64,000 nucleotides of DNA from a bacterium (GTDB lineage: Bacteria > SAR324 > XYD2-FULL-50-16): assembly GCA_032250835.1 (NCBI GenBank), contig JAVVEA010000006.1, forward strand, positions 1 through 64,000. Reading direction: 5' to 3'. Both the position numbers and the translations under genes were made by a program. This document shows positions 2,593-56,078 of the stretch, piece after piece (the first letter of the stretch is position 1; every line of letters begins with the position of its first letter). Under the pieces are notes generated by a model. That model made no database searches, was not told where the DNA came from, and saw only the letters and a list, made by a program, of their open reading frames with translations.

Positions 2593-2879
2593 AAGCTAAG
2601 TCTACTCAGGTTGATTATGCGAATATAACGATGCGGTATCTTACCCTGCCCCATGCTGAAAGAAAAGCCCCTTTTCATAAGAGATTCTATAAAAAAGCAG
2701 GAATCTTTAGGGGCTTTGCCAAAAAGCTCAATCTGTTGGGGTTGTTGATTGGCGGGTACGGGGCTTGTTGGGGTATACAAAATGGGGTAGGTAAGGGTTA
2801 CCGCTTCAAAACGGGTCCTTTGCCCAAGTTGAACCCTGTTGAGCGGCCCGTTGACGCTCTGTCATTACCCCTTGGAAGC

Positions 2880-4412
2880 ATGCGTAATTGGTGGCTGGCG
2901 ATTTTCTTTTTGATCTGGGCCCAACTGGCTTGGGCCGACTGCCGGACTTGCCATAAACTGTCTTGGCCCACTCCGGCCCACGCCCAAACGGCCTGTGTCG
3001 CCTGCCACCAGGGCCAAGCCCAAGCTACCACCGAAGCCGAAGCCCACCAAGGCCTGTTATCCAGCCCCGGCCAGCCGGAGGGGCGCGGCTGTGGGGCCGC
3101 TGACTGCCATAAAAAAGAGGTGGCTCAACATAGCGGTAACTTGATGAACCACGCATCCGGTTTGATCGAGACCACCCAACGGGCCTTTGGCGAACCGCCA
3201 CAAGCCAAGTCTGCCGCCCAACTGGGCCATCAGGGGGCCGAAAGCTACCTACGCAAGTTATGTATTTCCTGCCATTTAGGTACGGTGCTCGATTCCAGCC
3301 AGCCGGTCTTGGCTTGGCGCGGTGGGGCCTGTTTGGCTTGCCACTTAGGCGAGGCCAAAGCCGGGGTCCACCGGTCCCTCGACCTGCCCCGCGACAACCG
3401 GCGCTGTTTCGGCTGCCATAGCCGCTCGGGCCGGATCGCGCTGAGTTATGCCGGTTTGGCTGAACGGGCGGCACCCCAGCCGGGTAGTGTTTATCTTTTC
3501 GACGGACGCCCGGTCACCAAAGAGACACCGGACGTGCACAGCCGCGCCGGATTGCTTTGTACCGATTGCCACACCCGGCGCGGGGTGATGGGTGACGGTA
3601 GCGCAAAGGCCAAGGGCGAGCAGCGCGAAATCGCCTGCCTAGACTGCCACGGCGTCGAACGCCAGCCACCCTTTACAGCCCAGCGTTTTGGCAGCCCACT
3701 GCATAACCTACGGCAAAAAGCGGGGCGGCGTTTTTTAAAACCTAAAGCCCAAGGCGGAATGTTAGCAGTGCCGCTAGTGGACGCTGAGCACCAGACCCCG
3801 AACCATCAGCGCTTGAGCTGTGACGCCTGCCATGCGGGCTGGGCCCCGCAGTGTTATGGTTGCCATCTGGACTACGACCCTAAGGGCCAGCAGTTTGACC
3901 ACGCCCAAGGCAAAATAACCCCTGGCCGGTGGGTGGAGACCGGTTGGGACTATCAAGCAAAATTACCGGCCTTGGGTTGGTATCAAGGCCAAGTCACGCC
4001 CTTTGTTCCCGGCATGATCTGGACCCGGCAAACCCCCAAGGGGCCGCAGTCTGCCAGTATCTATGCCCCCCTTTCGCCGCACACCACCACGGGAGCGCGT
4101 AGCTGCGCCTCTTGCCACCAGAATCCAGCCGCCTGGGGCAAGGTGCCGGGCACTTCCGCCTCACCCCAGGGGGGTTGGGGTTTACCCCGAGCTTGGGGCC
4201 CCCAAAAGGGACCGGAGACGCTGCACCTCCAAGCCCGGAAGTTTAACGAATTTGAGGTGGGAAAATTCGAACGGGTGGGAGGCTGTTTGGAGTGCCATGG
4301 GGAAAAGTCCCCAATTTACCAAAATTTTTCAACTTCCCTAAAGCGTGCTTCAACACCGCAACACAGGGATGTGGCGGAAAAAAAAGGGCCGGTTGCCAAA
4401 AGCGGTAATTGA
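2880..4412 (+). CDS. periplasmic multiheme cytochrome c (11 CxxCH + 1 CxxxxCH), ExtM-like
   Basis: Signal peptide MRNWWLAIFFLIWAQLAWA from ATG 2880; heme motifs counted by eye; CHSRSGRIALSY and PDVH...CTDCHT...VMGDG segments. Confidence 0.85.
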   Translation: MRNWWLAIFFLIWAQLAWADCRTCHKLSWPTPAHAQTACVACHQGQAQATTEAEAHQGLLSSPGQPEGRGCGAADCHKKEVAQHSGNLMNHASGLIETTQRAFGEPPQAKSAAQLGHQGAESYLRKLCISCHLGTVLDSSQPVLAWRGGACLACHLGEAKAGVHRSLDLPRDNRRCFGCHSRSGRIALSYAGLAERAAPQPGSVYLFDGRPVTKETPDVHSRAGLLCTDCHTRRGVMGDGSAKAKGEQREIACLDCHGVERQPPFTAQRFGSPLHNLRQKAGRRFLKPKAQGGMLAVPLVDAEHQTPNHQRLSCDACHAGWAPQCYGCHLDYDPKGQQFDHAQGKITPGRWVETGWDYQAKLPALGWYQGQVTPFVPGMIWTRQTPKGPQSASIYAPLSPHTTTGARSCASCHQNPAAWGKVPGTSASPQGGWGLPRAWGPQKGPETLHLQARKFNEFEVGKFERVGGCLECHGEKSPIYQNFSTSLKRASTPQHRDVAEKKGPVAKSGN

Positions 4413-4493
4413 ACAATATTTAAAAATCCGTATAAACTGAAGCCAAGGTTGTTATCTAAGATCACCGCGAATTCGCCCTTTCCTGATATACCC

Positions 4494-6674
4494 ATGACGG
4501 CAAATACTTCACGCAGAGAATTTCTGCAAATCTCCTCGGGTTTTTTGGCTACCAGCGCCATCGTCGGACAGGTCCCTTTTCTAGGGTATGCACCCAATGC
4601 TGAGGCCGCTCCCGTTGCCGACAAGATTGTGCCCACCACCTGCGAACTGTGCTTTTGGCGCTGCGGGGTGGACGCCCACGTAAAGGATGGCAAGGTTTTT
4701 AAGCTTACCGGCCAGATGGACCACCCCCTTTCCAACGGCCACCTCTGCCCGCGCGGCACCGGGGGGATCGGCCTGCTTTATGATCCCGACCGCCTCCGTA
4801 CCCCCTTGATCCGCAAGACCGACGCCGACGGGACCCAAAAGTTCGTTGAGGCTAGTTGGGAAGAGGCCATTGCGTTGATTGCTAAGAAGTATGAAGAAAT
4901 GACCGCCGCCAATGAGGCGGACAAGATCGTTTTCTTTTCTCATGGCTTCGGTTCCAGCTTCTTTAACCGCCTCTTTGCGGCTTACGGCATCCTCAACCAC
5001 GCACACCCCTCCTACGCTCAGTGCCGCGGGGCCCGAGAAGAAGCCTTTGGCATGACCTTCGGCCACGCCGTGGGTAGCCCCGAGGGTTTGGATATTGCCA
5101 ACTCGGAATATTTGGTGCTGATCGGCAGCCACCTAGGCGAGAACATGCACAACACGGCGGTGCAGGACTTTAGTGAGGCCGTATCACGCGGCTGCAAGAT
5201 CATCGCCGTGGACCCGCGCTTTTCGGTGGCCGCTTCCAAGGCCGAGCGTTGGTTGCCTATTAAGGCTAGCACCGACTTGGCCCTGCTGCGCGCCTGGATT
5301 CGGATCTTGATTGAAGAAGAATTGTACGATCATGAATTTGTCAAAGCCAACTGCATCGGCCTTGAGGAGCTACGCGCCGGAGTGCGAGACGCCACCCCCG
5401 AGGCGACCTTTGCCATCACCGGCATTTCGGTTGAGGATATCCTGGCTGTGGGTCGTGACCTGGGTCGTTATGGTTCCAAGGCATTGGTGCATCCTGGACG
5501 GCACGTAAGCTGGTATGGCGATGACACCCAACGTTCTAGGGCTATTGCCATCTTAAACGCTTTGTTGGGTAACTACCGTATGCCCGGCGGTCTGATCCAC
5601 CAAACCAAAAAGTTTGGCGTCGGCACCCCCTATAAATTCACCAAGAAAGAGGGGGGCCACCATTATAAATCTAGGTTCCCCCTAGCGTCCCAGACCCCGG
5701 CTAACGAGGTGGTCGATGAAACCAAGAAAGGGAACTTCAAGTCTTGGTTCGTTTACGGCACCAACTTAGTCCAGACCTTGGGACATGTGGATGACACCAT
5801 CGAAGCCATTAAGGCCTTAGACTTCCTGGTAGTGATCGACGTTTTGCCCATGGAAATCACGGGCTATGCGGACGTGGTCCTGCCCGAGGTAACCTACCTG
5901 GAACGCTACGACGACCTGGACGACCGGGTTTACCGCCGCCCCTACGTGGCCCTGCGCCAGCCAGCAGTACCCCCCTTAAAGGGCTTAAACGCCAAACCGG
6001 GGCATGAGATTGCAAAATTGCTGGCCCAGGCCTGGAAACTGGACCCCGGTCTTTTCCCGCCCATCGAAGAATATTTGGACAACCGCCTCAAGACCGTGGG
6101 CAGCAGCCTCAAACAGATGTCTCAGGTGGGGGTGATGGTCAAAGAAGACCCGGATATTTACCGCAAACCCGGAGAACAACTGCGCTTTAACACCCCAACC
6201 GGTAAGATTGAGCTGTCTTCGACGAGGCTCAAGGCCGCTGGGTTCGACGGCGTGCCCCAATATACCTCGCACCCAGAGAACCCTCCAGGCTATTTGCGGC
6301 TGATCTACGGCCGGGCCCCGAACCATACCTTCGGGCGGACCTCAAACAATCGTTTCTTGGGCGAGTTGCTGTCCGAAAATGAGCTTTGGATCAACCGGAT
6401 CACCGCCCTGGACTTAGGTCTGGTGGACCAAGAATATGTCTTTTTGATCAATCAAGAGGGCAAGAAGTCTTCATCTAAGGTGCGCCTGAAATTGACCGAG
6501 CGCATCCGGCCGGATGCCGTCTATTTGGTGCACGGCTTTGGCCATACCGACCCCCGGCTCAAATGGGCCTTCCACCGGGGTGTGAGTGCCAACGAGATGA
6601 TCACCCAGCTGACGGTGGACCCCATTATGGGTAGCACGGGCATGAAAAACAATTTTGTCACCTTTGCAAGATGA
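4494..6674 (+). CDS. psrA: polysulfide/thiosulfate reductase catalytic subunit (PsrA/PhsA type, Mo-bisPGD)
   Basis: TAT motif [14 protein letters not shown]...C FS0 cluster; Cys ligand region [15 protein letters not shown] motif. Confidence 0.85.
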
Positions 6675-7219
6675 GCCGAGAACGTAAATACGCCATGATC
6701 ATCGACACCCAGCGTTGTGTCGGTTGCTCGGCTTGCGTCTACGCCTGCAAGTCGGAAAATAACGTCCCCGAGGGCTTCTGCCGCGATTGGGTCGTTTCGA
6801 TCACCGAGGGGCGCTACCCCAATCTAACGCTCACTAACCGCTCAGAGCGCTGCCAGCATTGCGAAGATGCACCCTGCGTCTCCAACTGCCCAACCGCAGC
6901 GAGCCACTATGCCGGTGACGGAACGGTGCAGATCGACCGGGATTTATGTACGGGCTGTAAGGCTTGCATCGCTGCTTGTCCCTATGATGCGCGCTACATC
7001 CACCCGGGCGGTTTCGCCGACAAATGCTCCTTCTGTAACCACCGCATCCAGGCAGGGATGACGAGCACCGCCTGCACCCAAGTTTGCCCCACCGGCACCT
7101 TGAATCTGGTGGACCTCAATAGCAACGACGGCAAAGCCGAAGCGCTCTTAAAGGGCCGACAGGTGAAACAAGACAAGACCCACGCCGGAACGAAACCCAA
7201 ACTCTTTTGGCTGGTGTAG
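6671..7219 (+). CDS. psrB: 4x[4Fe-4S] subunit (PsrB/NrfC type)
   Basis: [28 protein letters not shown] motifs; overlaps psrA stop. Confidence 0.9.
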
Positions 7220-7221
7220 CC

Positions 7222-8142
7222 ATGACTGAAATCGTATCGAACAAACTCAACCCCGACGTCCTGCCCCATTTGGCCATTTGGAATTGGGAGGTGCCGGTCT
7301 ATCTGTTTTTAGGTGGTTTGGCCGCCGGTCTTTTGGTGATTAGCTCCATGAGCTTGATCTTGCGTCAACGCTCCAACAGCAAACCTACCGTCAAACGGGC
7401 GGCCTTATTGGCCCCGATTGCTTTGAGCGCGGGCATGTTTTTCCTCTTTTTGGATCTTGCCTTTAAGCTGCATGTTTGGCGCTTTTACACCGCCTTCGTT
7501 TGGACTTCTCCCATGTCTTGGGGTAGTTGGATGTTGGTGGTCTTTTATCCCTTCTCGATCCTGCAAGCGGCCATTCTCTATAAAGAAGAACTCCGCGCCA
7601 AGTTTGGCGGGCTGGCCTTTTTGGACCAAGCTGAGACCCAATTGAGCAAGATCGCGGTGGTCAATGCCCACATTGGCGTGGGCGTAGGTGTCTATACAGG
7701 TATTTTGCTGGCGACTTTTTATGCGCGCCCGCTTTGGTCGAACGCCGTCTTGGGCCTGTTGTTTTTGCTTTCGGGCCTTTCGGCTGCGGCGGCCTTGATG
7801 CTTTGGATGGCCCCCCAGACCGAAAAGCGCATCTATTCGCGCCTGGACATGTATTTGCTCTCTTTAGAGGGCTTTGCCCTGACGGTCTTCGTGATCGGTG
7901 GCTTGACTGGAGACGCCAATCGAGCCCAAGCGATGTGGAGCTTCTTGACCGGTCATTATGCCCCTTGGTTCTGGTCGATCACTATTGTGGGCGGCTTGTT
8001 GCTGCCTCTGGTGCTCGAAACTATGGAAACGCTGGGCAAAAGCAAGTTCAGCTTCTTTGTGCCGTTGCTGGTTTTGATCGGTAGCCTGAGCCTGCGCTTC
8101 ATCTTGGTCTTTGCCGGCCAGTCGATGCCCACCTTTTCCTAA
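7222..8142 (+). CDS. psrC: NrfD/PsrC membrane anchor
   Basis: WEVPVYLFLGGLAAG, DL, SPMSWGSW, YTGILL motifs; ~8 TM helices. Confidence 0.9.
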   Translation: MTEIVSNKLNPDVLPHLAIWNWEVPVYLFLGGLAAGLLVISSMSLILRQRSNSKPTVKRAALLAPIALSAGMFFLFLDLAFKLHVWRFYTAFVWTSPMSWGSWMLVVFYPFSILQAAILYKEELRAKFGGLAFLDQAETQLSKIAVVNAHIGVGVGVYTGILLATFYARPLWSNAVLGLLFLLSGLSAAAALMLWMAPQTEKRIYSRLDMYLLSLEGFALTVFVIGGLTGDANRAQAMWSFLTGHYAPWFWSITIVGGLLLPLVLETMETLGKSKFSFFVPLLVLIGSLSLRFILVFAGQSMPTFS

Positions 8143-8156
8143 TCCAAAGAGGAATC

Positions 8157-8684
8157 ATGTCGAACAAAGAAATCACGGCCCAACCCTATTGGCCTAACCT
8201 GCTGGCCGGAATCGGCCTGGGATTGGTTTTGTTGATGGCCTATTACATTGCCGGGCGCGGCTTGGGCGGCTCTGGTGCGGTGACCCGCGTCGGTGCGGGG
8301 CTGCTGAATCTGGTCGCCCCGGAACATACCGGGGGCCTCGAATACTTTTCCCGCTATATCCGAGAAGGCAAGGTCAGTCTGAACGACTGGTTGGTCTTCC
8401 AGACCATCGGCGTCTTCTTTGGTGGCTTTGTCGCCGCCATGACCGCCGGTCGCTTCGGCAAGACCATCGAACATGGCCCCCAAATCACCGCCAAGCAACG
8501 CTTGGGCTGGGCTTTGTTGGGGGGGATTATTATGGGCATCGGGGCGCGGATCGCGCGCGGGTGCACCAGCGGTCAAGCCTTATCGGGCGGAGCTACCATG
8601 GCCCTAGGCAGTTGGGTCTTTATGCTGATGCTCTTCGCTGGGGGGTTCCTGGCGGCTATCTTTTTTAAGAGGTTGTGGCTATGA
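8157..8684 (+). CDS. YeeE/YedE sulfur (thiosulfate) transporter family
   Basis: GGIIMGIGARIARGCTSG motif; hydrophobic. Confidence 0.9.
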   Translation: MSNKEITAQPYWPNLLAGIGLGLVLLMAYYIAGRGLGGSGAVTRVGAGLLNLVAPEHTGGLEYFSRYIREGKVSLNDWLVFQTIGVFFGGFVAAMTAGRFGKTIEHGPQITAKQRLGWALLGGIIMGIGARIARGCTSGQALSGGATMALGSWVFMLMLFAGGFLAAIFFKRLWL

Positions 8685-9277
8685 ACGAGATCGTCGCGCC
8701 TTTGGCTAAAACCGGCTATTTGGGGCCGGAAATTAATTTGGTCTTCGCCATGCTGATCGGCGTGGGCTTTGGGTTCTTTTTAGAACGCGGCGGTTTCGGC
8801 TCGTCACGCAAGCTCACCGCCCAGTGGTTCGGCAAGGATTGGAGCGTCTTTCGGGTGATGTTCAGCGCCATTGTGGTCGCGCTCTTCGGCATCGTCTTTT
8901 TAGACCTCTTGGGGCTCATGCCCTTTGAGCGGCTTTACTTGAACCATACCTACTTGGTGCCCCAAATCTTAGGTGGATTGATGATGGGTGCGGGGTTTGT
9001 GATCGGTGGTTACTGCCCCGGTACGAGCTTTGTGGGCTTTGCTTCGGGTAAGTTGGACGCCTTGGTTTACATCATCGGGTTGTTGCTGGGTTCCGTCTTC
9101 TTTGGCGAAGCCTATGACCTCTTTGCGCCGATCATGGAGATGGGCGATATGGGGAATATTACGCTGCCCGAGTTTTTTGGACTGCCTGCTTTGGTGGTGG
9201 GGCTGATGGTTTTAGCTCTCGCCGCAGGTGGCTTTTGGGCCGCAGCTAAGGTGGAAAACCTCGTTAAGGACAAATAA
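8681..9277 (+). CDS. YeeE/YedE sulfur transporter family, second subunit
   Basis: GVGFGFFLERGGF and GGYCPGT motifs; ATGA overlap with previous gene. Confidence 0.9.
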   Translation: MNEIVAPLAKTGYLGPEINLVFAMLIGVGFGFFLERGGFGSSRKLTAQWFGKDWSVFRVMFSAIVVALFGIVFLDLLGLMPFERLYLNHTYLVPQILGGLMMGAGFVIGGYCPGTSFVGFASGKLDALVYIIGLLLGSVFFGEAYDLFAPIMEMGDMGNITLPEFFGLPALVVGLMVLALAAGGFWAAAKVENLVKDK

Positions 9278-9280
9278 ACG

Positions 9281-9877
9281 ATGAACCTTTCGCCAGACTA
9301 CAAATGGGTATTGCCCGGCTTTGGCCTGCTGATTTTGGTGGCCATCGCGCTGACGAATTATAAAGGTCCGGCTCCTTGGTATGCTTCGGTAGAAGACTAC
9401 CAAATCAGCCAGATTTCGCCTGCTGAATTGGCCCGCTGGATCGTCGAAGGGCGCAACGACTTTTTGGCCGTGGCCGTCGGGGATTCTGAAGAGCTGAACA
9501 CCATTCCGGGTTTGATCCGGGTTGCCAACCAAGAAGAACTGGCAGCGGCACTCAAAAAGTACCCGAATTATAAAAAGTGGGTGATCTTAAACAACGGCAG
9601 CCCGTTGTCTCCGGAAATGGCCCAAATGGCCACCCAGGACTGGGAACGCCGCGTGATCCTGCTCAAAGGGGGCGTACCCCAGTGGCAGGCGAGGATCGGC
9701 GCAGAAGAACTAGATTGGAGCCAGATTCCAGCTGAAGAAACGGCGGAACTCAAAGAAGTCCGCGCCTTCTTCCACCAGGGTGGTGCTGCGGAAGCGGAGC
9801 AATATGTGGCCCCTAAACCGGTGGTGATGCCTTTCTTGGCCGACCTACCACCGCCGCCGAAAGCCGAGGGCTGCTAG
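9281..9877 (+). CDS. membrane-anchored degenerate rhodanese-fold protein with a single C-terminal Cys
   Basis: N-terminal TM helix; ISPAELARWI and ILLKGGVPQW rhodanese motifs; ends PPPPKAEGC. Confidence 0.7.
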   Translation: MNLSPDYKWVLPGFGLLILVAIALTNYKGPAPWYASVEDYQISQISPAELARWIVEGRNDFLAVAVGDSEELNTIPGLIRVANQEELAAALKKYPNYKKWVILNNGSPLSPEMAQMATQDWERRVILLKGGVPQWQARIGAEELDWSQIPAEETAELKEVRAFFHQGGAAEAEQYVAPKPVVMPFLADLPPPPKAEGC

Positions 9878-9975: not shown

Positions 9976-11286
9976 GTGATGATCCCATTTTCCTTTTCTA
10001 GGCAGTTCTTGCTTCTGTTGGTGGGCCTTTTTTGGGCCAGCAGTTCGACCCTCTGGGCCGAGCAGTTTAAAGGTAAGATCACCTCGATCTCCAAAAAAGC
10101 GCAGGTGATCCAGCTCAAGGTGGGCAAGGAAACCCGCGCGGTTAAGTATTCTGCCGACACCAAGTGGGTCCAGGCCAGCTCCATCAAAGACCTGATCGTT
10201 AACGACAGCATTGTGGTGGACGCTGAGCCCGGTCAGGCGGCCAAACAGATCGAACGTAAGGTCGTTAAGCTGCCCAAGGGCTGGCTGATCGAGCGCGAAG
10301 AGTTGCAACAGTTGCTTGCCAAAGGCCAAGCAACTATGATTGATTCGCGCCCTCCTGCCCGCTACAACGAAGGCCACATCCCTGGGGCCTTGGGCATCTT
10401 CGCTGATCACTTGGCCAAAGATCCTAGCCTTTTACCATCTGATAAGAATGCGCTGTTGGTCTTTTATTGCGGTGGCCTGACCTGTGGCTTGAGCCCTAAA
10501 TCGGCCAAAATTGCCGCCAAGGCGGGCTATAAAAACTTGCGGGTCTATTCGGCAGGTATGCCCGACTGGAAAAAGGCCGGATTACCCGTTGAGGTCAAAG
10601 CCGCTTGGCTGGCCAAGAACCTAGGGTCCCATCTGGTGGTGCTCGACGCACGCGAACCGGCGGCCCAACAGGCCGGACACATCAAGGGGGCGGTAGGCCA
10701 GACACCAACGCAGATGGCCGCCTTAGACCAAGATTTTGCCGCTAAGAAGCTGCCTGGGGATCAGTGGAGATTGCCGGGCCTAGCGGACAAAGGTGCTTTG
10801 GTGGTGGTGTACAGCGACCAATATGCCGACCCCGCCGCCCAGTATGCCTTTAAGTACCTTAAGCGCTGGCAGTACAAAAACCCGGCGATCTTGGCCGAAG
10901 GCTTTGCGGGCTGGGAAAAAGCTGGATTCCCGGTCCAAACCGGGGCGACCGCGACGGTGGCCCGATATGTAAAGAAATTGGCACCTGGGGCGATACCTGT
11001 AGCAAAATTCAAGAGCCAAGTTGCCGCTGGGGTAACCGTTTTGGATGTGCGTGAAGACAGCGAAGTCCAAGCCGGGGCGATCAAAGGCTCCATCCATATG
11101 CCCTTGAGTCAGTTGGATGCAGGCCTAGCTAAACTGGACAAAACCAAACCCTTGCTGATCCATTGCAGCACCGGCGTACGCGCTGAAATGGCCTATCAGA
11201 CCTTAAAGAAACAAGGCTTTAAGCAGGCTCGTTTTTTAAACGAAACGATCAACATCAACTCGGACGGAAGTTTTAACATCGAGTGA
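9976..11286 (+). CDS. exported triple-domain rhodanese/sulfurtransferase
   Basis: Signal peptide; GHIPGA, GHIKGA, GAIKGS; loops YCGGLTC and HCSTGVR; middle domain lacks Cys. Confidence 0.9.
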   Translation: MMIPFSFSRQFLLLLVGLFWASSSTLWAEQFKGKITSISKKAQVIQLKVGKETRAVKYSADTKWVQASSIKDLIVNDSIVVDAEPGQAAKQIERKVVKLPKGWLIEREELQQLLAKGQATMIDSRPPARYNEGHIPGALGIFADHLAKDPSLLPSDKNALLVFYCGGLTCGLSPKSAKIAAKAGYKNLRVYSAGMPDWKKAGLPVEVKAAWLAKNLGSHLVVLDAREPAAQQAGHIKGAVGQTPTQMAALDQDFAAKKLPGDQWRLPGLADKGALVVVYSDQYADPAAQYAFKYLKRWQYKNPAILAEGFAGWEKAGFPVQTGATATVARYVKKLAPGAIPVAKFKSQVAAGVTVLDVREDSEVQAGAIKGSIHMPLSQLDAGLAKLDKTKPLLIHCSTGVRAEMAYQTLKKQGFKQARFLNETININSDGSFNIE

Positions 11287-11295
11287 TCCCCACCT

Positions 11296-11323
11296 AGGGG
11301 CCAAATTCTTTGGCCCCTTCTTT
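11296..11323 (+). terminator. intrinsic terminator of the psr operon
   Basis: AGGGGCCAA/TTGGCCCCT hairpin followed by TCTTT. Confidence 0.65.
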
Positions 11324-11684
11324 CCTATCCCCACTCTGGGGAAATTGCCGCAGGTTTATTTTCTTATATAAGTTGTTAACTCGATCTTAATTTAAGGAAA
11401 AAACCGTTTATTTGGCCGTTATCTGATCTTCTTATCAACAAAGCAAACTCGACAAGCCGCCGATTTTTCTCTGAATTGTAGTTTTTTATTTGATAAAAAA
11501 CAGTCGGATAGGCATACGTGACCGGAACGTAATATTCAAATGATGCAATAAAAAAATTGGGGTCAACGCTATATTTTTTTGACATTTATTTTTTTTTGGC
11601 GTTAAACTCGGGCCAAATTTTCTATTGTTTTCCTGTCAACCCGGAGCGGTCCGGGCACAATCAACCATAAACCCGTGGGGTTCT

Positions 11685-12914
11685 ATGAAGAAACTTTTGA
11701 TCTTGGGTGCCGGATGCGCCGGCACCATGGTGGCCAACAAGTTACGCAAACGCCTGGACGAGAACGAATGGTCCATCACCATTATCGACAAAGACGATAA
11801 ACACATCTACCAGCCCGGCCTGTTGTTTGTGCCCTTTGGTGTCTACCAGCCTAAAGACGTGGTCCGCTCTCGCACCGAGTTCATCGGCAAGGGGATCAAA
11901 TTTGTCCAGGCCGAGATCACCAAGATGGACCCTAAAGGCCAAAAGGTTGAGACCACTGCAGGAAATTTCGATTACGACAAAGTGATCGTCGCTACCGGTG
12001 TCTACATCAACCCCGAAGAGGTTGACGGCTTGATGGAAGGCTGGGGCAAAAACGCCTTTGACTTCTATACCTTAGAAGGCGCTACGGCGCTTTCAAAAGC
12101 GCTGCGCGAGTTCCAGGGCGGCAAGTTGGTCTTGGATATCGCCGAGATGCCCTTTAAGTGCCCTGTGGCTCCTCTTGAATTCGTTTATTTGGCTGATTGG
12201 TACTTCACCGAGCGCGGCATCCGTGACAAAGTAGAAATCCGCCTAGTCACCCCGCTGCCCGGCGCGTTCACCAAGCCGAAGGCGACCGCTTTCTTCACCG
12301 AGTTGATCGAGAAGAAAAACATCAAGATCACCCCCAACTTCGATCTGATGGAAGTGGACTGTAAGGGGCAGAAGATCATCGCCGCCAACGGTGCCGAAGA
12401 GCCCTTCGACTTATTGGTTTCCATCCCGCCGAACCTGGGCGCTCGTTTCTTGGTTGAGTCCGGCGTGTCTTTGGACGAAGTGGGTTACGTCAACACCGAC
12501 AAAAACACCCTCAAGGCCGCTAACCACGACAACATGTTTGTCGTCGGCGACGGTTCGAACCTGCCCACCTCTAAGGCTGGTTCGGTGGCCCACTTCTCGG
12601 CTGAAGTGATGGTAGAAAACTTCATGCGTGAAGTACATGGCGAGCCGCTCAAGCCTGAGTTCGACGGCCATGCAAACTGCTTCATCGAGACGGGCTTCGA
12701 GAAAGCCGCTTTGATCGACTTTAACTACGACTTTGAGCCGCTGCCCGGCAAGTTCCCCCTTCCCGGCCTGGGCCCCTTCTCTTTGTTGCAGGAATCTAAG
12801 GCAAACCACTGGGGCAAGTTGATGTTCAAGTGGGTCTACTGGAACAAGCTGATCACTGGCGACGAGCTGCCGCTGGAAGCACAACTGAACCTGGCTGGTA
12901 AACTGCAAGACTAG
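11685..12914 (+). CDS. sqr: sulfide:quinone oxidoreductase-like flavoprotein (type III/SqrC-like)
   Basis: GAGCAG FAD loop; YQPGLLF; FKCPVAP and HANCFIE cysteines; WGKLMFKWVYW C-terminal helix. Confidence 0.85.
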   Translation: MKKLLILGAGCAGTMVANKLRKRLDENEWSITIIDKDDKHIYQPGLLFVPFGVYQPKDVVRSRTEFIGKGIKFVQAEITKMDPKGQKVETTAGNFDYDKVIVATGVYINPEEVDGLMEGWGKNAFDFYTLEGATALSKALREFQGGKLVLDIAEMPFKCPVAPLEFVYLADWYFTERGIRDKVEIRLVTPLPGAFTKPKATAFFTELIEKKNIKITPNFDLMEVDCKGQKIIAANGAEEPFDLLVSIPPNLGARFLVESGVSLDEVGYVNTDKNTLKAANHDNMFVVGDGSNLPTSKAGSVAHFSAEVMVENFMREVHGEPLKPEFDGHANCFIETGFEKAALIDFNYDFEPLPGKFPLPGLGPFSLLQESKANHWGKLMFKWVYWNKLITGDELPLEAQLNLAGKLQD

Positions 12915-12925
12915 GAGGTCTGTCC

Positions 12926-13636
12926 ATGACGAACGAAGAAAAAATCCTCGCTAAGCTCGATGAGCTGACCGAGGCCGTCGCCGAGGCTCGGCGCGCCGTT
13001 CGCCCCATGTCGGACCTGAAGAAGGACATGGAGCCGGTGATGCGCCAGCTGGTGGATGAGGCCATCTCGAAGCTGGGCGGCGTGAATGTCGATGCAGAAG
13101 ACGTGGGTCGTCTGGTCGGTGCTACGTTAGGCTCCGCTGGTAACCTCGCCGAAGGGGTGAAAACCCTGAACGCTTTACTGGACCTCAAACAAGACATGGT
13201 GCCGGTCACCAAGCAGGCCTTTAACGAGATCATCCATGGGTTGGACTCAGTAGGCCATGGCTTTGACTCAGACGCTCTGTTTTTGCTCCTGCGCCAGACG
13301 GTACTTAACTTAGGCAACTTGGCCGAAGGCTTAAAGACCCTTAATGCGGTAATGGAATTCAAGGAAGACGCTTCGGACATCTCCAAAATGGCGATGGACA
13401 TGGCGATCGACCAGCTAGAATCCCTCAAGCAGAAGGGCGTCTTTGAAGGTTTGGCCAACTTGGCTACGGTGGGCGAGAAATTGGCCGGAGCGGCTAAAGA
13501 CCTGGATTTTTCTCAGGTCAAGCCGATCACTGGGGTCTTTGGAATGCTCGGAGCGCTTAAGGACCCCAAGGTCCAAAAGGGCTTGGGCGTGGCCATCTAT
13601 ATGGCCGGTCTTTTGGGTGCCGTCGCCGAAGATTAA
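12926..13636 (+). CDS. DUF1641-family helical protein
   Basis: C-terminal KPITGVFGMLGALKDPKVQKGLG signature; follows sqr; AGGAGG RBS. Confidence 0.85.
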   Translation: MTNEEKILAKLDELTEAVAEARRAVRPMSDLKKDMEPVMRQLVDEAISKLGGVNVDAEDVGRLVGATLGSAGNLAEGVKTLNALLDLKQDMVPVTKQAFNEIIHGLDSVGHGFDSDALFLLLRQTVLNLGNLAEGLKTLNAVMEFKEDASDISKMAMDMAIDQLESLKQKGVFEGLANLATVGEKLAGAAKDLDFSQVKPITGVFGMLGALKDPKVQKGLGVAIYMAGLLGAVAED

Positions 13637-14032: not shown

Positions 14033-14269
14033 TTATTTGACTTGGATCCACCAAAGATACTCGCCACCGGCTTCTTCGGTTTTTAAGATCGGGTTGCCGG
14101 TGCGCTCGCTCCAAGAGGGCATATCTTTGTTTGAGCCTGGATCGGTGCAAACCATTTTAAGCACTTGGCCGCTGGTCATGGCCTGAACCGCTTTCTTGGT
14201 TTTCAGTACCGGCAGCGGGCAGCCGAGCCCGCGGCAGTCCAATTCTTGATCTACTTTGATGTCGTTCAT
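14033..14269 (-). CDS. tusA: TusA sulfur carrier
   Basis: LDCRGLGCPLP and TDPGS motifs; start at MNDIK. Confidence 0.95.
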   Translation of the reverse strand: MNDIKVDQELDCRGLGCPLPVLKTKKAVQAMTSGQVLKMVCTDPGSNKDMPSWSERTGNPILKTEEAGGEYLWWIQVK

Positions 14270-14300
14270 CGTTAATCCTGGTTGGTAAGTTGGTACGCGA

Positions 14301-14810
14301 TTAGATAAATAGTTGAATATCTGCTTCTGCGGCAAAATCCAAGAAGTTGGCCGCTCCTGCGTATTCGATGCCTTCGATAAAGTCTTCTTTCTTGAAGCCA
14401 AAGACGTCCATGGTCATTTGGCAGGCGATATACTCCACGCCTACATCCGTACAGAGTTCGCGCAGCTCTTCGATAGTGGCGACGCCGTGTTTTTTGAAGG
14501 TTTGTTTCATCAAGTTGGTTGCCACGGATTCGAAACCGGGCACACCAGCCATCAAGGCGTTGGGGATCGGCCAGTTGATCTTTTGGAACCATTCGGGACC
14601 GAAGGGCATAGCCATCGGCATCGAGGGGTTCCCCAAAGGAGAAACCTGAGCCTCGATCTTCTGCTTAAGCAGCGGGAGGCCGTAAAAGGTGAAAAAGATT
14701 TTCACTTCCATATCCATCGCCGCAGCGGCGCTGGCCAGGATAAAGGGCGGATAGGCCCAATCCAGGGTGCCCTTCGAAGCGATCAGGGCCATTTTTTTCG
14801 GCTCAGCCAT
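14301..14810 (-). CDS. dsrE2: DsrE2-family sulfurtransferase
   Basis: KGTLDWAYPPFILAS, FFTFYGL, IACQMTMD. Confidence 0.9.
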   Translation of the reverse strand: MAEPKKMALIASKGTLDWAYPPFILASAAAAMDMEVKIFFTFYGLPLLKQKIEAQVSPLGNPSMPMAMPFGPEWFQKINWPIPNALMAGVPGFESVATNLMKQTFKKHGVATIEELRELCTDVGVEYIACQMTMDVFGFKKEDFIEGIEYAGAANFLDFAAEADIQLFI

Positions 14811-14834
14811 AAGTTCCTCCTTTTGGGGTTGCCG

Positions 14835-15128
14835 TTAAAGCCAGGCGTTCACCTGGTGGGTTTCGACTAATTCAACAAAACCATCATAGTCGATTTGAGT
14901 AACCCCTTCGACTACCCGCCGGATGCCGCGCGCGGCTAAGTCACCGGCTAGGGCGTATACGGGGTTGTTATTCATAGCCCCGGTAAGGGCTGATTCGAAC
15001 TTCGAGCCTGCCTGTGCAGCCAAAACGCCGTCTTCAATCAGCAGTAGCGGATCGTTGGCTTGGACGCAGCGCAAGGCATGCTCTAAGCTGTCTGACGAAA
15101 AGGGTGACTTGTTGATCGTATGTAACAT
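14835..15128 (-). CDS. dsrH: DsrH/TusB
   Basis: MLHTINKSP, LLIEDGV, DLAARG, IDYDGFVEL. Confidence 0.95.
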   Translation of the reverse strand: MLHTINKSPFSSDSLEHALRCVQANDPLLLIEDGVLAAQAGSKFESALTGAMNNNPVYALAGDLAARGIRRVVEGVTQIDYDGFVELVETHQVNAWL

Positions 15129-15143
15129 CTGGGCTCCTTTAGT

Positions 15144-15512
15144 TTAGTGCGGGACAATCACATCTTGCTGGCTCATCAGCTGGCCGATGGCCGCTGAATC
15201 CAGCACCTCGACCTCGACAAAGAGGTCCTCTTCGCTCAGTCCGCGCTCTTCTAAGGACTGTTTGTCAGTATACAGCTTTTCTACGTCATAGTCTTCTAAA
15301 ACCCCCAGGGTTTTCATGAAGCCTTTGATGCCGATCCCGGCGGTGTCTTGGTCTTTCATTAGGTTAAAGACCCCGTCGCCCATGAAACACATGCTGATGT
15401 CTTGGTCGTAGGCGGCCATGATCAAGACCATCTCTAGACCTTCGTAGGCGTAGATCGTACCGTGCGGTGCTTTGCGGACCACGTGCATAATTTTTTTAAC
15501 GTCTTCGCTCAT
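15144..15512 (-). CDS. dsrF: DsrF/TusC
   Basis: RKAPHGTIYAYEGLE, FMGDGVF, SLEERGL. Confidence 0.95.
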   Translation of the reverse strand: MSEDVKKIMHVVRKAPHGTIYAYEGLEMVLIMAAYDQDISMCFMGDGVFNLMKDQDTAGIGIKGFMKTLGVLEDYDVEKLYTDKQSLEERGLSEEDLFVEVEVLDSAAIGQLMSQQDVIVPH

Positions 15513-15520
15513 GTTTGCCT

Positions 15521-15877
15521 CTAATCGCCAAAGGTTACCAACCGGTCAACCCGGATGGCGATGTCGGTCAGTTGGCCTAGACCGGTGATGGTAGCCCCTT
15601 CAAGTAGGACCTCTTCGTTGATGCCGCGGCGCTTGGCGGCAGCAATGCAGGAAAGGATTTCCACCCCTTCTTTGGCCAACTCGGTCCAACGAGCGCCCAC
15701 ATGGCGGTCGTCTTGGGGCGGGTCCATATGTTTGGTGGCATTGTTCACGCCATCGTTGTATAAGAAGACGGCTTCTACTTCATGGCCGCGTTTTCGGGCG
15801 GCTTGTATAAAGTGATAGGCCGTGTCGGCGGCTTGGTGGTTATAGGGGCCTTCCTTTAGGAGAATGCCAATTTTCAT
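15521..15877 (-). CDS. dsrE: DsrE/TusD
   Basis: EGPYNHQA, FLYNDGV, active Cys in SCIAAAKRRG, GLGQL; start at MKIGIL. Confidence 0.95.
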   Translation of the reverse strand: MKIGILLKEGPYNHQAADTAYHFIQAARKRGHEVEAVFLYNDGVNNATKHMDPPQDDRHVGARWTELAKEGVEILSCIAAAKRRGINEEVLLEGATITGLGQLTDIAIRVDRLVTFGD

Positions 15878-16127
15878 CTGTTCCCTCTTGAGCAGGTGGG
15901 GTTTCATTCCCTTACCAGAGTATATGTATATGGGAATATGCCATTGGTCCGGTATTTTGGTTTTACCCTTACAGAAAGTCAAATTATTTTCAAAAATTTT
16001 TTCTTTCAAGCAGCGGAATTTCTTGTTTTCCCTGATCAGGCCCGAATCCCGATCAGTTTACCAACTTAAGAATCAACCGAATCACCTTTGACGGGTCTGT
16101 AGTCCCCTAGCAGCCATTTTTTTTTGT

Positions 16128-16156: not shown

Positions 16157-16268
16157 TGCTATGTCTAAATATTCAAATATCGCTACATAGCGGACCCCCA
16201 GCCGGGGACGCTATAGCGTGGCCCCCCTTGGGAAACCATCACCCCAAAAGCCCCTAGTAGAGGAGCCC

Positions 16269-17831
16269 ATGAACTACGGCTTTTTGATCAACAACTCGAA
16301 ATGCATCGGCTGTCACGCCTGTTCGACGGCCTGCAAGAGTGAAAACCAAGTTGCCTTGGGTGTGTTCCGCACCTGGGTGAAGTACACCGAGGTGGGCAAC
16401 TACCCGAACGTGAAACGCAACTTCCAGGTGAACCGCTGTAACCACTGCGCAAATCCCCCCTGTGTGGAGATTTGCCCGGTTACGGCCATGCACCAGCGCG
16501 AAGACGGCATCGTCGGTTACGACTCGGATCTTTGTATTGGTTGTAAGTCCTGCATGCAGGCCTGCCCCTACGATTCGATCCACATCGACCCGGTCACCAA
16601 GACCGCCCAGAAGTGTCATTATTGTGCGCACCGGGTGGAAAACGGGATGGAGCCTTCTTGCGTGGTTGTCTGCCCGCAGCATGCCATTGTGGCAGGCGAC
16701 CTGGACGACCCCAACAGTGAGTTGTCCAAAGAGATTGCCAAGAACGCGGTCACCGTCCGCAAGCCCGAACAGGGCACGGGCCCCAAGCTCTTTTACGTAG
16801 ACGGGCACCAAGCCGCCTTGACCCCCATGGTCACCGAAGGCCGCTCGAAGCATTTTATTTGGGGCGACGTGGTCAGCGAGAAGTTGACCGACGCCCACAT
16901 CCCCGAAGAGCCGGTATTGTACTTCGGCCAGGGTGAACAGATGGTCCAGACCACCTTCAATGCCCAGCACAAGGTGCCCTGGCATTGGCAGGTTCCGGCC
17001 TACTTGACCACCAAGGGCATCGCTTCGGGTGCCTTTATGTTGATGGCCGCGTTCAGCATTTACGGCTGGGGCGGCGCGCACCATGCCTTGGGTGCCGCCA
17101 GTAAGCTGACTGCTGGTTTCTTGGCTGTGGTCTTCTCACTGCTGACCACGGTCTTCTTGGTTTGGGACTTAGACCGACCCGAGCGTTTTTTAAGGGTGAT
17201 CTTGCGGCCCCAGTTTAAATCTTGGCTGGTACGCGGTGCCTTTATCTTGATTGGCTTCTCCAACTTGGTGGGCCTTTGGTGGGTCGTCGAACTGGCGGCC
17301 AGCCTGGGCTTTATCGAGGCCACCCCGGTTTGGTTGGAAGCTCTGGCTATTTATTTGGGCTTCCCGCTGGCCATTGGGGCGGCTATTTACACCGCCTTCT
17401 TGTTTGGTCAGGCCGAAGGGCGCGACTTTTGGCAGAGCCCTCTGCTCCCCTTCCACTTCTTGACCCAGGCTATTATGGCCGGGGGTGCCGGTTTGCTGGT
17501 CGCCAATCAAGTGGTGGCTTTGGACCCCGCTTTCGCTTCGGTGGCGGCTCATGCCTTTACTCTGGGCTTGGCAGTGAACCTGATGATGATCCTGCTCGGT
17601 GAATTCGGCATGAAGCACCAGACCGAAACGGCAAGTGCCGCGGCGCATATGATCACCAAAGGTGAGTTTAAGAACCTCTTCTGGGGGGGTGCGATCCTCC
17701 TGGGGAACTTGGTCCCCTTCGCTTTGGCTCTAGCGGGCTTTAGCGTACCGGCGGCCCTGTTGGCCCTGGTGGGCCTTTATATTTACGAGCACGTCTTCGT
17801 GCTGGCACCCCAAAAAGTTCCCAATAGCTAG
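16269..17831 (+). CDS. fused 4x[4Fe-4S] domain + NrfD/PsrC membrane domain
   Basis: CIGCHAC, CNHCANPPC, CIGCKSC, KCHYC followed by WHWQVPAYL, DLDRPERF, YTAFLF; start MNYGF after AGGAG. Confidence 0.9.
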   Translation: MNYGFLINNSKCIGCHACSTACKSENQVALGVFRTWVKYTEVGNYPNVKRNFQVNRCNHCANPPCVEICPVTAMHQREDGIVGYDSDLCIGCKSCMQACPYDSIHIDPVTKTAQKCHYCAHRVENGMEPSCVVVCPQHAIVAGDLDDPNSELSKEIAKNAVTVRKPEQGTGPKLFYVDGHQAALTPMVTEGRSKHFIWGDVVSEKLTDAHIPEEPVLYFGQGEQMVQTTFNAQHKVPWHWQVPAYLTTKGIASGAFMLMAAFSIYGWGGAHHALGAASKLTAGFLAVVFSLLTTVFLVWDLDRPERFLRVILRPQFKSWLVRGAFILIGFSNLVGLWWVVELAASLGFIEATPVWLEALAIYLGFPLAIGAAIYTAFLFGQAEGRDFWQSPLLPFHFLTQAIMAGGAGLLVANQVVALDPAFASVAAHAFTLGLAVNLMMILLGEFGMKHQTETASAAAHMITKGEFKNLFWGGAILLGNLVPFALALAGFSVPAALLALVGLYIYEHVFVLAPQKVPNS

Positions 17832-17839
17832 GAGAGACC

Positions 17840-20773: not shown

Positions 20774-21669
20774 TGGATTTTGTGAGCCAAATCGGGGTCT
20801 TGGTGCCCATGCTGACCGGTGAGATGGGCCTCGCCCAGCTCACCGCAGTTCGCCAGCACGAGTCCTTAGGGCCCGCGCTGGCCAACCACTATGGCCATCG
20901 ACCCGACGCGGAGTTGCTCGACGAGCTGGGCGCGGACCACTACCACCTTTTCGGGCTGGAGGTCTTCCCCTATGCTTCGGTGTTCTTTAACGAGAATGCC
21001 CATATGGGGGGCGTTTTGCCCGGACAGGTTGCCGAATTTTACGCACTGCGCGGCTTAGAGCGGCCCAGCGAGCCGGACCATTTGGGCCGTGAGTTGGCGC
21101 TCTTGGCTAATCTGGTGGAAGCAGGCGACGAGAAGGCCACGGCCAGCTTCTTCTGGCGCTACCTGATGAGTTGGTACTTTCCCTTTGCCGAGGCCGTCAA
21201 AGCACTGCAACACCCCTTTTATAATGCCCTCTTCGACCAGCTCGAAAGCCTGCTGGCCGTCTTGGGAAGTCAATTAGAGCCGATCCCGGCCCAGATCGAA
21301 GAGCCCGAGGCCGAGCCTTTAGAAGCGCTGGACCAACAAGAAACGGGTATCGGCGACATCAGCGAGTTTTTGTTGGCCCCCCGCTTGGCGGGCTTCTTTT
21401 TGAGCCGCACGGCCCTAAAAGAAATGGGCGAACGGATCGACATGCCCACCGGCTTCGGCACCCGCAGCACCCTGCTACCGCAGATCTTTTACACCGCCGT
21501 AGACTACGACCGCCTCCCGGCGCTCTTAGAAGAACTAGACCGCATCGCCGCCGCACAGCAAGAACGGTACAATGCCTTGGCCCAAGGGTGGCCGGGGATG
21601 CTGGACTATTGGCTGGGCCGCGTAGCCGTGATCCGTGCGATGCTCTCTAAGATGAAGGCGGCGGTTTAG
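20773..21669 (+). CDS. TorD/DmsD-family maturation chaperone
   Basis: PYASVF and EPDHLGREL motifs; follows the Mo enzyme. Confidence 0.85.
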   Translation: MDFVSQIGVLVPMLTGEMGLAQLTAVRQHESLGPALANHYGHRPDAELLDELGADHYHLFGLEVFPYASVFFNENAHMGGVLPGQVAEFYALRGLERPSEPDHLGRELALLANLVEAGDEKATASFFWRYLMSWYFPFAEAVKALQHPFYNALFDQLESLLAVLGSQLEPIPAQIEEPEAEPLEALDQQETGIGDISEFLLAPRLAGFFLSRTALKEMGERIDMPTGFGTRSTLLPQIFYTAVDYDRLPALLEELDRIAAAQQERYNALAQGWPGMLDYWLGRVAVIRAMLSKMKAAV

Positions 21670-55900: not shown

Positions 55901-56078
55901 CCCTAACGACCTGAAGGTAGCCAACTTGTTTTTAGCCGGCGACTGGACCAAAAACCTGATCAACGCCGGTTGCGTCGAGGCGGGCGTGATCAGCGGGCTC
56001 AACTGTGCGCGCTTCTTGACTGGCTGGAACATCCCAATCTACAACGCCACCAAGAAGCAGCTCGAAGAGGGGCCCTAG
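52947..56078 (+). CDS. fusion of acetoacetate-decarboxylase-fold domain and FAD-dependent oxidoreductase (carotenoid/amine oxidase superfamily)
   Basis: GREIYGFQK and FLKQFRD in the first ~310 aa; VAVLGAGVGS, IGGKGASGR, EEHGLHIWLGFY, NLFLAGDW, GCVEAGVISG. Confidence 0.8.
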   Translation: MSLPKYIEATGNICFEPPYDLLGTDFYCFPLGGKRETIQATVDQFLAPVLEGTGIRYEVISDFLMLGLAYAERASSAVEPARSTGWVPEVDWAFWVPLMRYEGNEPKRMVWFMPYVFVNNPIAMVGGREIYGFQKTTAQFDPPASPKVMGDFSLEAWAFAEFGVEQEGKVQEIFNLKNLGAGPDEASFFKDLLLAAETLVSLAEMAIGDPADLLKALIADLLRGQVPQVFLKQFRDITKGDKACYQVVAEAPARLLKLPSISPIFESYQLNNPNLASYPFAQSLGIGEGAIPLGLGMKVQMDFRMEMGEVIAQSKELRPQKVAVLGAGVGSLLAVAAVVTAPEYNGQYQFTVYERGWRIGGKGASGRNTEKDMQIEEHGLHIWLGFYNNAFHWIDAAYRAALERLGYSHLGLSWRDFFSPTDLVVFEEKVKNQWKPWPIKFPDNAEVPGSPEQFLGPIDYAEMMVEMLLEMLRNLKAEIEGERRQRTGFFGGLQDWFERLVSNQPIQALDGLLVSLLERLAQAKKAMNRAEGPVQEIEELIQAVLGEILELVDSVQKLIEKILKPFFDDSDLLRRLWTIMDLGLTVLTGMCQDKMFTRGFSVANDLDFYAWLKKHGADQLVMEGPLIQAVYDIVFGYDDGDPERPALAAGVGLYGSFRMLLTYKEHIFWRMNMGMGDIVFTPLYELLRSKGVKFEFFHQVDQIKASDDGDQIDSLEIIRQVDLKPEVKAYDPYVSVPYNVPNKDLTIDWPCWPSEPNWDQINPDQAAQLKELEKRRLTLECPWSPWEGVGRIELKRGVDFDQVICGITVRALDPISQDLQAKRPEFKEMLRQTKTVVTRGAQLWFKQSSEELGFDPGEDRYQGLEPIVGGYVEPYGSIADLTHLIAQETWGANPPKYLAYPCGVMKMGVMPPPSDQDFPMRAYQEIVDTSWAWLDQNAAYLWPNACGPDGKLKPEALDSQYWRPGVNYTEHYVLSVPGSVVYRRGPNDLKVANLFLAGDWTKNLINAGCVEAGVISGLNCARFLTGWNIPIYNATKKQLEEGP

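Follow-up and report, generated by a model that had tools for sequence, protein, structure and literature searches.

A membrane-tethered rhodanese-fold protein with an invariant terminal cysteine beside a split YeeE-type channel: a candidate sulfur-carrying arm

SoxY, with its C-terminal GGCGG motif, and DsrC/TusE carry sulfur on a cysteine (Cys) close to the end of a flexible arm at the C-terminus, and Sud of Wolinella succinogenes, which is soluble, carries sulfur on the Cys of its rhodanese loop. The subject here is a small rhodanese-like protein whose lone Cys is its very last residue, referred to below as the arm protein and encoded directly after the two halves (YeeE-a and YeeE-b) of a split YeeE-type channel. 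Its gene lies in a 64,000-nucleotide stretch of DNA from a SAR324 bacterium (positions 1 to 64,000 of contig JAVVEA010000006.1, GenBank assembly GCA_032250835.1), and this whole stretch is termed the window. The question that such a protein would address is the route by which periplasmic zero-valent sulfur reaches the cytoplasmic oxidation machinery, sulfur import having been called "poorly understood" (PMC11582611). In the split importer YedE1E2, uptake of zero-valent sulfur needs the conserved Cys of each half (PMC10812762). A gene cluster of the form phsABC-pmpAB-sulfurtransferase is on record for Ca. Electryonea clarkiae, Ca. Lernaella stagnicola and Caldithrix abyssi, with mention of one Pmp fused to a sulfurtransferase domain; the transported species, the role of Pmp and what the sulfurtransferase beside Phs does were there called "unclear" (PMC9324843).

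A first-pass annotation, made from the letters of this DNA, had described a protein whose only Cys is the last residue on a Pro-rich tail. Translation bears this out: C198 is the sole Cys and the final residue before the TAG stop (codon 9872-9874), and the ATG lies 3 nucleotides past the stop of the upstream YeeE half. The gene and its parts are as follows.

9281..9877, + strand: gene of the Cys-tipped rhodanese-like protein (198 amino acids; ATG start, TAG stop)
9299..9358, + strand: N-terminal membrane helix, residues 7-26 (AlphaFold2 helix with a high predicted local distance difference test score, pLDDT; hydropathy 9-27)
9398..9700, + strand: rhodanese-fold core, about residues 40-140 (AlphaFold2, Foldseek, profile search)
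9587..9610, + strand: loop in the position of a rhodanese active site, L103-S110 (LNNGSPLS), without Cys
9776..9865, + strand: variable Pro/Ala-rich tail, residues 166-195 (low pLDDT, 63-75; composition and length vary across the family)
9866..9874, + strand: codons of the invariant Glu-Gly-Cys (EGC), followed by TAG

Hydropathy gives a single membrane segment (residues 9-27), and the N-terminal helix probably serves as a signal anchor that stays uncleaved. With 23 relatives as input, AlphaFold2 gives a model (mean pLDDT 85.3) that consists of a helix (7-26), an alpha/beta core (42-140), a second helix (151-165) and a tail with a pLDDT of 63-75. Among the 8393 open reading frames (ORFs) of at least 80 amino acids in the SAR324 host genome, the arm protein alone ends in EGC.

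The terminal motif is conserved to an extent that the rest of the protein is not. Conservation of a terminal (G/E)GC had been set as a check in the first-pass annotation, and the motif passes it strongly: after removal of duplicates, 150 of 156 distinct relatives end in EGC with Cys as the C-terminal residue, and the six that do not are truncated or frameshifted. The same ending is found in all four close proteins, and in all 19 short matches of an exhaustive representative search (23 matches, from which four long repeat proteins, P0013, P0019, P0020 and P0024, were dropped as low-complexity matches). It is likewise present in 11 of 11 loci fetched from relatives' genomes, with the weak matches G025 and G032 left out, and in 28 of 29 loci from a species collection, which were found with a 14-sequence alignment narrower than the 23-sequence alignment used for column counts. 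In the 29th locus (L039), a frameshift at 10300-10500 splits a fused YeeE-b::rhodanese gene, and KKKKEGC followed by a stop is readable in another frame. Longer homologues were not recovered with the window protein as query; fused forms surfaced only with a fused protein as query, and of the 101 proteins so found 95 end in EGC, the six exceptions being truncated or frameshifted. In the 23-sequence alignment, where identity falls to 22%, seven columns are invariant (W53, G131, W135, F164, E196, G197 and C198), three of which are the terminal motif. EGC is retained even beyond detectable sequence similarity, and the tail that precedes it ranges from poly-Glu to poly-Lys; over the six positions just ahead of EGC, the sequence is basic in 115 members, acidic in 25 and mixed in 10. 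The distance from the GGxxxW motif at the end of the rhodanese core to the C-terminus varies from 63 to 101 residues.

The rhodanese fold of the arm protein is not in doubt, despite a Pfam PF00581 score of 17.3 bits that is below the gathering cut-off of 22.2. A match to PF00581 at E <=0.01 is found in 12 of the 23 family members, a profile of these 23 matches solved rhodaneses (1yt8 at E=2e-19, 6mxv at E=2.7e-14), and Foldseek with the AlphaFold2 model returns many rhodanese domains at E around 1e-4, Sud (1qxn) among them. At E up to 0.1, Rhodanese is the only Pfam family matched by the arm protein, with neither SoxY nor DsrC matched, and NCBIfam gives no match to it at all, including none to ExtH (NF040901, the rhodanese-like protein of a selenite/tellurite reduction operon). 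Membership in ExtH was rejected, with one of the 23 family members matching it, at 2.8e-4. No Pfam or NCBIfam model specific to the EGC family was found.

What the fold lacks in the window protein is its catalytic residue. The catalytic-Cys column falls in VILNNGSPLS (L103-N105, the register being uncertain by one residue), and no Cys occupies it in any of the 23 aligned members; where catalytic sulfurtransferases of the GlpE, PspE and Sud type have a Cys opening the active-site loop, the window protein has L103-N104-N105. The initial description of an inactive rhodanese therefore stands for the window protein, and "dead rhodanese" fits its branch, but not the family as a whole: among 86 members of the fused subfamily, the canonical column, fixed by pairwise alignment onto the catalytic Cys of GlpE and 3iwh, holds Cys in 48, Tyr in 37 and Phe in one. 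Since the loop Cys is variable, it is dispensable, and the terminal Cys is not.

The domain is held to the membrane in more than one way. Homologues show three kinds of tether, namely a transmembrane helix, a lipobox and fusion to YeeE-b, and these support the earlier suggestion that the protein is membrane-tethered. Lipobox-like N-termini (L-x-[GA]-C after a hydrophobic stretch), read by eye, occur in six distant homologues and in loci L021 and L024, and fused forms retain a membrane helix between the YeeE-b part and the rhodanese part. The basic residues of YeeE-b number 5, 1 and 0 in the loops and 3 at the C-terminus, a pattern that agrees with a C-terminus in the cytoplasm, provided that the Cys-bearing stretch spans the membrane; on that basis, the additional helix of the fusions would put the rhodanese domain outside. 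Judged from the sequences, all three tethers would keep the domain on the outer side of the cytoplasmic membrane.

The two channel halves directly upstream are the most constant neighbours of the arm gene.

8157..8684, + strand: YeeE-a half channel, 175 amino acids, matching the C-terminal half of Pfam Sulf_transp (invariant Cys136 in GCTSGQ)
8675..9277, + strand: YeeE-b half channel, 200 amino acids, matching the N-terminal half of Sulf_transp (invariant Cys114 in GGYCPGTS)

This YeeE pair upstream, and an exported three-domain rhodanese of 436 amino acids downstream, are the neighbours that had been claimed. When the window proteins were compared by tblastn with the 29 loci, YeeE-a and YeeE-b were each matched in 27, PsrC in 26, PsrB in 25, PsrA in 24, the multihaem cytochrome in 16 and the three-domain rhodanese in four. 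The arm gene is preceded by the YeeE pair in 27 of 29 loci (at least five phyla are represented), a count that includes L024 with its YeeE fragments, and the two loci without it (L016 and L029) begin at a contig end. In other phyla, YeeE-b is the half with which the arm protein forms fusions: the arm is joined to the YeeE-b C-terminus in 17 of the 29 loci (Opitutaceae, Acidobacteriota and relatives), and PF04143 and PF00581 are both present in most of the 101 further proteins. Among 60 genomes of relatives, the arm gene was found in 13, and in 11 of these the same contig has a YeeE-b match no more than 9 kb away; in the remaining two, the copy lies where a contig begins or belongs to a genome that is 88% complete. 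The module is distributed over SAR324/Lambdaproteobacteria, Acidobacteriota, Opitutaceae, Ignavibacteria and Nitrospinota. The window protein has each of the features proposed to define the family, namely the predicted outer-face tether, the rhodanese fold, the C-terminal EGC and a gene adjoining or fused to YeeE-b. Synteny, together with gene fusion to a transporter half, supports the proposal that the protein serves the transporter or PsrA.

Two other arrangements of the same domains were seen. In the ESM Atlas, a cluster of 686-residue proteins (54 members, mostly Thermodesulfobacteriota) carries Rhodanese and Sulf_transp, and may combine an entire channel with the rhodanese part in one chain. 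The SAR324 genome has a second YeeE-type gene (G000:C5:61227-62375), one open frame of 405 amino acids in which the C-terminal-half Pfam match precedes the N-terminal-half match, the a-then-b order of the split pair, joined.

The high counts for PsrA, PsrB and PsrC, upstream in 24, 25 and 26 of the 29 loci, bear on a different partner for the arm. It could be a Sud-like carrier for the PsrABC-type reductase, showing polysulfide sulfur bound on the terminal Cys to the molybdenum site, with the YeeE pair having a separate task such as product uptake. Such a role would fit the position of the arm gene directly after PsrC in G015 and G017, the four paralogous clusters in which PsrAB directly precedes YeeE-ab and the arm without a PsrC match, and the presence of Sud (1qxn) among the fold matches. 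The observed fusions, however, are all to YeeE-b and none to a Psr subunit, and as the sole function of the arm this is considered unlikely, even though carriage for the reductase and delivery to the channel are compatible and not mutually exclusive.

Those four paralogous clusters, in relatives first scored as lacking an arm (L048-L051, from G004, G012, G009 and G016), provide a separate line of evidence. The gene order is PsrA, PsrB, YeeE-a, YeeE-b, and then a transmembrane-anchored rhodanese-like ORF with an acidic tail ending in EGC; the four divergent arm proteins that the first protein search missed thus carry the same terminus. No PsrC/NrfD match lies between PsrB and YeeE-a in these clusters, which raises the question of PsrAB's membrane attachment and electron supply. 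In all four paralogues, an in-frame TGA takes the place of the codon for the invariant YeeE-b Cys (Cys114 of GGYCPGTS in the window) and probably encodes selenocysteine. Exchange of Cys for selenocysteine usually marks a residue with redox or nucleophilic chemistry, and here the exchange suggests covalent chemistry at the channel Cys. A selenocysteine-terminated arm was ruled out, as the stop here is TAG and arms beside the selenocysteine-containing channels still end in Cys. YeeE/YedE selenoproteins have already been catalogued, with the motif GUxSG (PMC13188914); this is the motif of the other half, and not the GGYCPGTS of YeeE-b.

A channel with a reactive Cys or selenocysteine, and a protein tethered or fused to it, could also be explained if the terminal thiol were a gate, plug or redox sensor, its tail occupying or covering the mouth of the channel and the pore being opened or closed through a disulfide or persulfide formed with a channel Cys. 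An invariant motif on a variable linker would suit this function equally. Nothing in the data is specific for regulation, however, and the co-occurring exported Cys-bearing rhodaneses and reductase fit sulfur flux better, so that regulation is held to be improbable. Even less credence is given to EGC as a structural or processing signal, that is, a dimerising disulfide, a site of C-terminal modification or a metal ligand. A lone periplasmic Cys is prone to disulfide formation, but dimerisation leaves the fixed partnership with a Cys- or selenocysteine-bearing channel unexplained, and no sorting signal is known that consists of three final residues behind a charged linker. In favour of this very improbable explanation, C-terminal Cys or selenocysteine motifs without an assigned role have been catalogued, for instance the 'Cys-Cys-COOH' of SaoC, with binding of metals or unidentified substrates suggested for them (PMC13188914).

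The interpretation that we lean towards, with somewhat better than even confidence, is that the protein is a tethered, persulfide-carrying arm that feeds sulfane sulfur to the YeeE channel, possibly also to or from PsrA. The N-terminal helix would hold the protein at the outer face of the cytoplasmic membrane, and the rhodanese-fold domain has given up its loop Cys, the indispensable part being the terminal thiol on a flexible tail of ~30 residues. This thiol would take up periplasmic sulfane sulfur as a persulfide or polysulfide, and the sulfur might come from polysulfide, from the exported Cys-bearing rhodanese next door or from the PsrABC-type enzyme. By a swing of the arm, the sulfur would then enter the split YeeE-a/YeeE-b channel at its outward-facing mouth, and the two invariant Cys of the channel would pass it to a cytoplasmic TusA/DsrE2/DsrEFH/DsrC relay encoded 4 kb away. 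In a second possible role, like that of Sud in Wolinella, the arm would offer its bound sulfur to PsrA, where it would be reduced. The fold, the absent loop Cys, the invariant EGC, the extracytoplasmic tether and the synteny and fusion with YeeE-b rest on the analysis itself; sulfur loading, hand-off to the channel and the direction of transport are the inferred parts of this scheme. It is preferred because EGC is invariant (three of the seven invariant columns) while the rest of the protein drifts, because of the variable tail, the outer-face location, the synteny and fusion with YeeE-b and the channel Cys or selenocysteine, and because a downstream route is present, with TusA, DsrE2 and DsrEFH in the window and dsrAB and dsrC in the genome.

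A more specific version of the channel-feeding arm is put forward only tentatively, and may well prove wrong. Here, the terminal Cys would thread into the channel mouth and transfer sulfane sulfur covalently to the channel Cys (selenocysteine in some lineages), coupling periplasmic redox enzymes of the Psr type, and perhaps others, to cytoplasmic TusA/DsrE/DsrC. If true, such a transmembrane persulfide relay from protein to channel would be the missing step that brings periplasmic zero-valent sulfur into Dsr-type sulfur oxidisers and disproportionators.

Several observations weigh against an arm that delivers sulfur to the channel. The residues beside EGC span eight Glu to four Lys, so that the charge of the linker is not conserved and is therefore hard to square with one electrostatic docking site. 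In the AlphaFold model of a fused relative, the channel half is poor (mean pLDDT 62.6) and the tail falls below 50, with values of 28-37 before EGC; the tail is disordered in this model, which cannot show docking. For the full-length Spirochaeta YeeE, the published proposal is non-covalent passage of thiosulfate and not a Cys-to-Cys relay (PMC11582611). The linkage to PsrABC (24-26 of 29 loci) is nearly as tight as that to YeeE, and the arm may serve the reductase instead. The rhodanese domain may be catalytically active in part of the family, since 48 of the 86 fused relatives keep the canonical Cys. Lastly, in the Nitrospinota locus L024, only fragments of YeeE-a and YeeE-b (44 and 87 amino acids, 7957-8353) precede the lipobox-bearing EGC protein, and no Psr gene is found within the 8 kb of upstream sequence; the context there is Mrp/NuoBCD-like genes, a cytochrome b561 and a dihaem cytochrome, and the YeeE fragments may reflect gene decay or a chimeric contig.

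Around the arm gene and the channel halves, the window encodes the following.

2631..4412, + strand: multihaem cytochrome c (ExtM-like)
4449..6674, + strand: PsrA/PhsA-type molybdopterin subunit (2vpw_A, Thermus PsrA, E=5.4e-169 over full length)
6671..7219, + strand: PsrB-type four-cluster iron-sulfur subunit
7207..8142, + strand: PsrC/NrfD-type membrane subunit
9976..11286, + strand: three-rhodanese-domain protein, 436 amino acids, hydrophobic N-terminus
11296..11318, + strand: hairpin resembling a terminator, at the presumed end of the operon (consensus match only)
14033..16009, - strand: cytoplasmic sulfur relay genes, TusA-like, DsrE2, DsrH, DsrF and DsrE

The spacing of these genes (start-stop overlaps among PsrA, PsrB and PsrC, a 10-nucleotide overlap of YeeE-a and YeeE-b, the 3-nucleotide gap before the arm gene and a 98-nucleotide gap before the three-domain rhodanese) suggests that the cytochrome, PsrA/B/C, YeeE-a, YeeE-b, the arm and the three-domain rhodanese form one operon. 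A promoter and terminator scan of the window gave counts no higher than in shuffles. Among sequencing runs sharing words with the window, no RNA run is listed, and the single run found is soil-metagenome DNA, with a share of 0.13 of the sampled words. In the three-domain rhodanese, read by eye, a loop Cys is present in domains 1 and 3 and absent from domain 2, which reads VVVYSDQYAD. Elsewhere in the genome are dsrAB and four DsrC-family genes (on C4, C11, C22 and C14).

The gene content also bears on whether the cargo is sulfur at all. The cluster could instead belong to a selenium or other chalcogen or metalloid system, in which the Psr-like enzyme is a selenite-type reductase, the terminal thiol binds selenium and the YedE-type channel imports it. 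The respiratory selenite reductase of Bacillus selenitireducens is reportedly Psr-like and encoded with rhodaneses, and this was counted in its favour. The nearest NCBIfam name of the upstream cytochrome is ExtM, from a selenite/tellurite reduction operon (178.5 bits against an 800-bit cut-off), the YeeE halves match YedE selenium-transporter models of NCBIfam weakly, and the paralogous channels have a probable selenocysteine. Those NCBIfam scores are, however, all far under their cut-offs, and PsrA matches Thermus PsrA at 5.4e-169 as against 9.5e-30 for ArrA. A type III sulfide:quinone reductase, TusA, DsrE2 and DsrEFH in the window, and dsrAB and dsrC in the genome, likewise point to sulfur, and a selenium system appears highly improbable. 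An arsenate-type identity for PsrA was rejected on the same ArrA and Psr scores.

Further along the window, the type III sulfide:quinone reductase (11625-13636, + strand) scores 642.9 bits against a 'selenoprotein subtype' model, yet its frame reads through without a stop, and it is followed by a DUF1641 protein. A second molybdoenzyme set lies at 16218-21666 (+ strand), with a 537-amino-acid fusion of a PsrB/TtrB-like iron-sulfur part and an NrfD-type membrane domain, a molybdopterin subunit of 977 amino acids (PhsA-like at 208.7 bits, below the cut-off) and a TorD/NarJ-type chaperone (PF02613). Two large ORFs, at 52947-56075 (+ strand, 1043 amino acids) and 56150-59404 (- strand, 1084 amino acids), have no NCBIfam match at E <=1e-10.

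A full-text search of the literature found no description of a rhodanese with a terminal Cys or of the missing loop Cys. The EGC arm is thus probably undescribed, whereas the gene cluster is already known, with a function called "unclear". A fixed, often fused, Cys-tipped arm outside a YeeE-type channel would represent a concrete and testable hand-off mechanism, and a C-terminal EGC after a rhodanese fold, adjoining split YeeE genes, provides a simple sequence marker with which to recognise it.

Compared with the systems already described, the phsABC-pmpAB-sulfurtransferase cluster has the same order, with Psr/Phs genes, two half YeeE transporters and then a sulfurtransferase; in its published description, as far as the passages on the cluster go, there is no mention of a terminal Cys or a missing loop Cys, and the likeness is one of gene order (PMC9324843). 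YedE1E2/PmpAB is likewise a channel encoded by two genes, each half having one essential or conserved Cys, just as each half in the window has one invariant Cys, but its halves are about 130-140 amino acids and the accounts consulted describe no periplasmic partner, whereas the halves here, of 175 and 200 amino acids, always occur with the Cys-tipped protein (PMC10812762, PMC11582611). TsuB/YeeD resembles the arm protein as a small single-Cys partner, reported to be required by a YeeE-type transporter, in that case the full-length YeeE/TsuA (PMC11582611, PMC13047784); TsuB is cytoplasmic and TusA-like, whereas the arm protein has a rhodanese fold and a predicted place on the outer side.

Sud is a periplasmic single rhodanese domain working with a Psr-type reductase, and is matched by the arm protein in both fold and profile. 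The arm protein differs from it in lacking the loop Cys, in having its sole Cys at the C-terminus, and in being membrane-tethered and partnered or fused with a YeeE channel. The arm protein has neither the SoxY fold nor GGCGG, its fold being that of a rhodanese and its terminus EGC (a SoxZ partner was not searched for), and the Pfam scan gave no PF04358, the family of DsrC/TusE with its penultimate Cys on the arm. The folds of SoxY and DsrC/TusE are unrelated to that of the arm protein, in which Cys is the last residue and the partner is a channel rather than SoxZ or DsrAB; the swinging-arm principle proposed for EGC would, by analogy, be the same. If true, this principle of SoxY and DsrC would be extended to a third, unrelated fold and to membrane transport.
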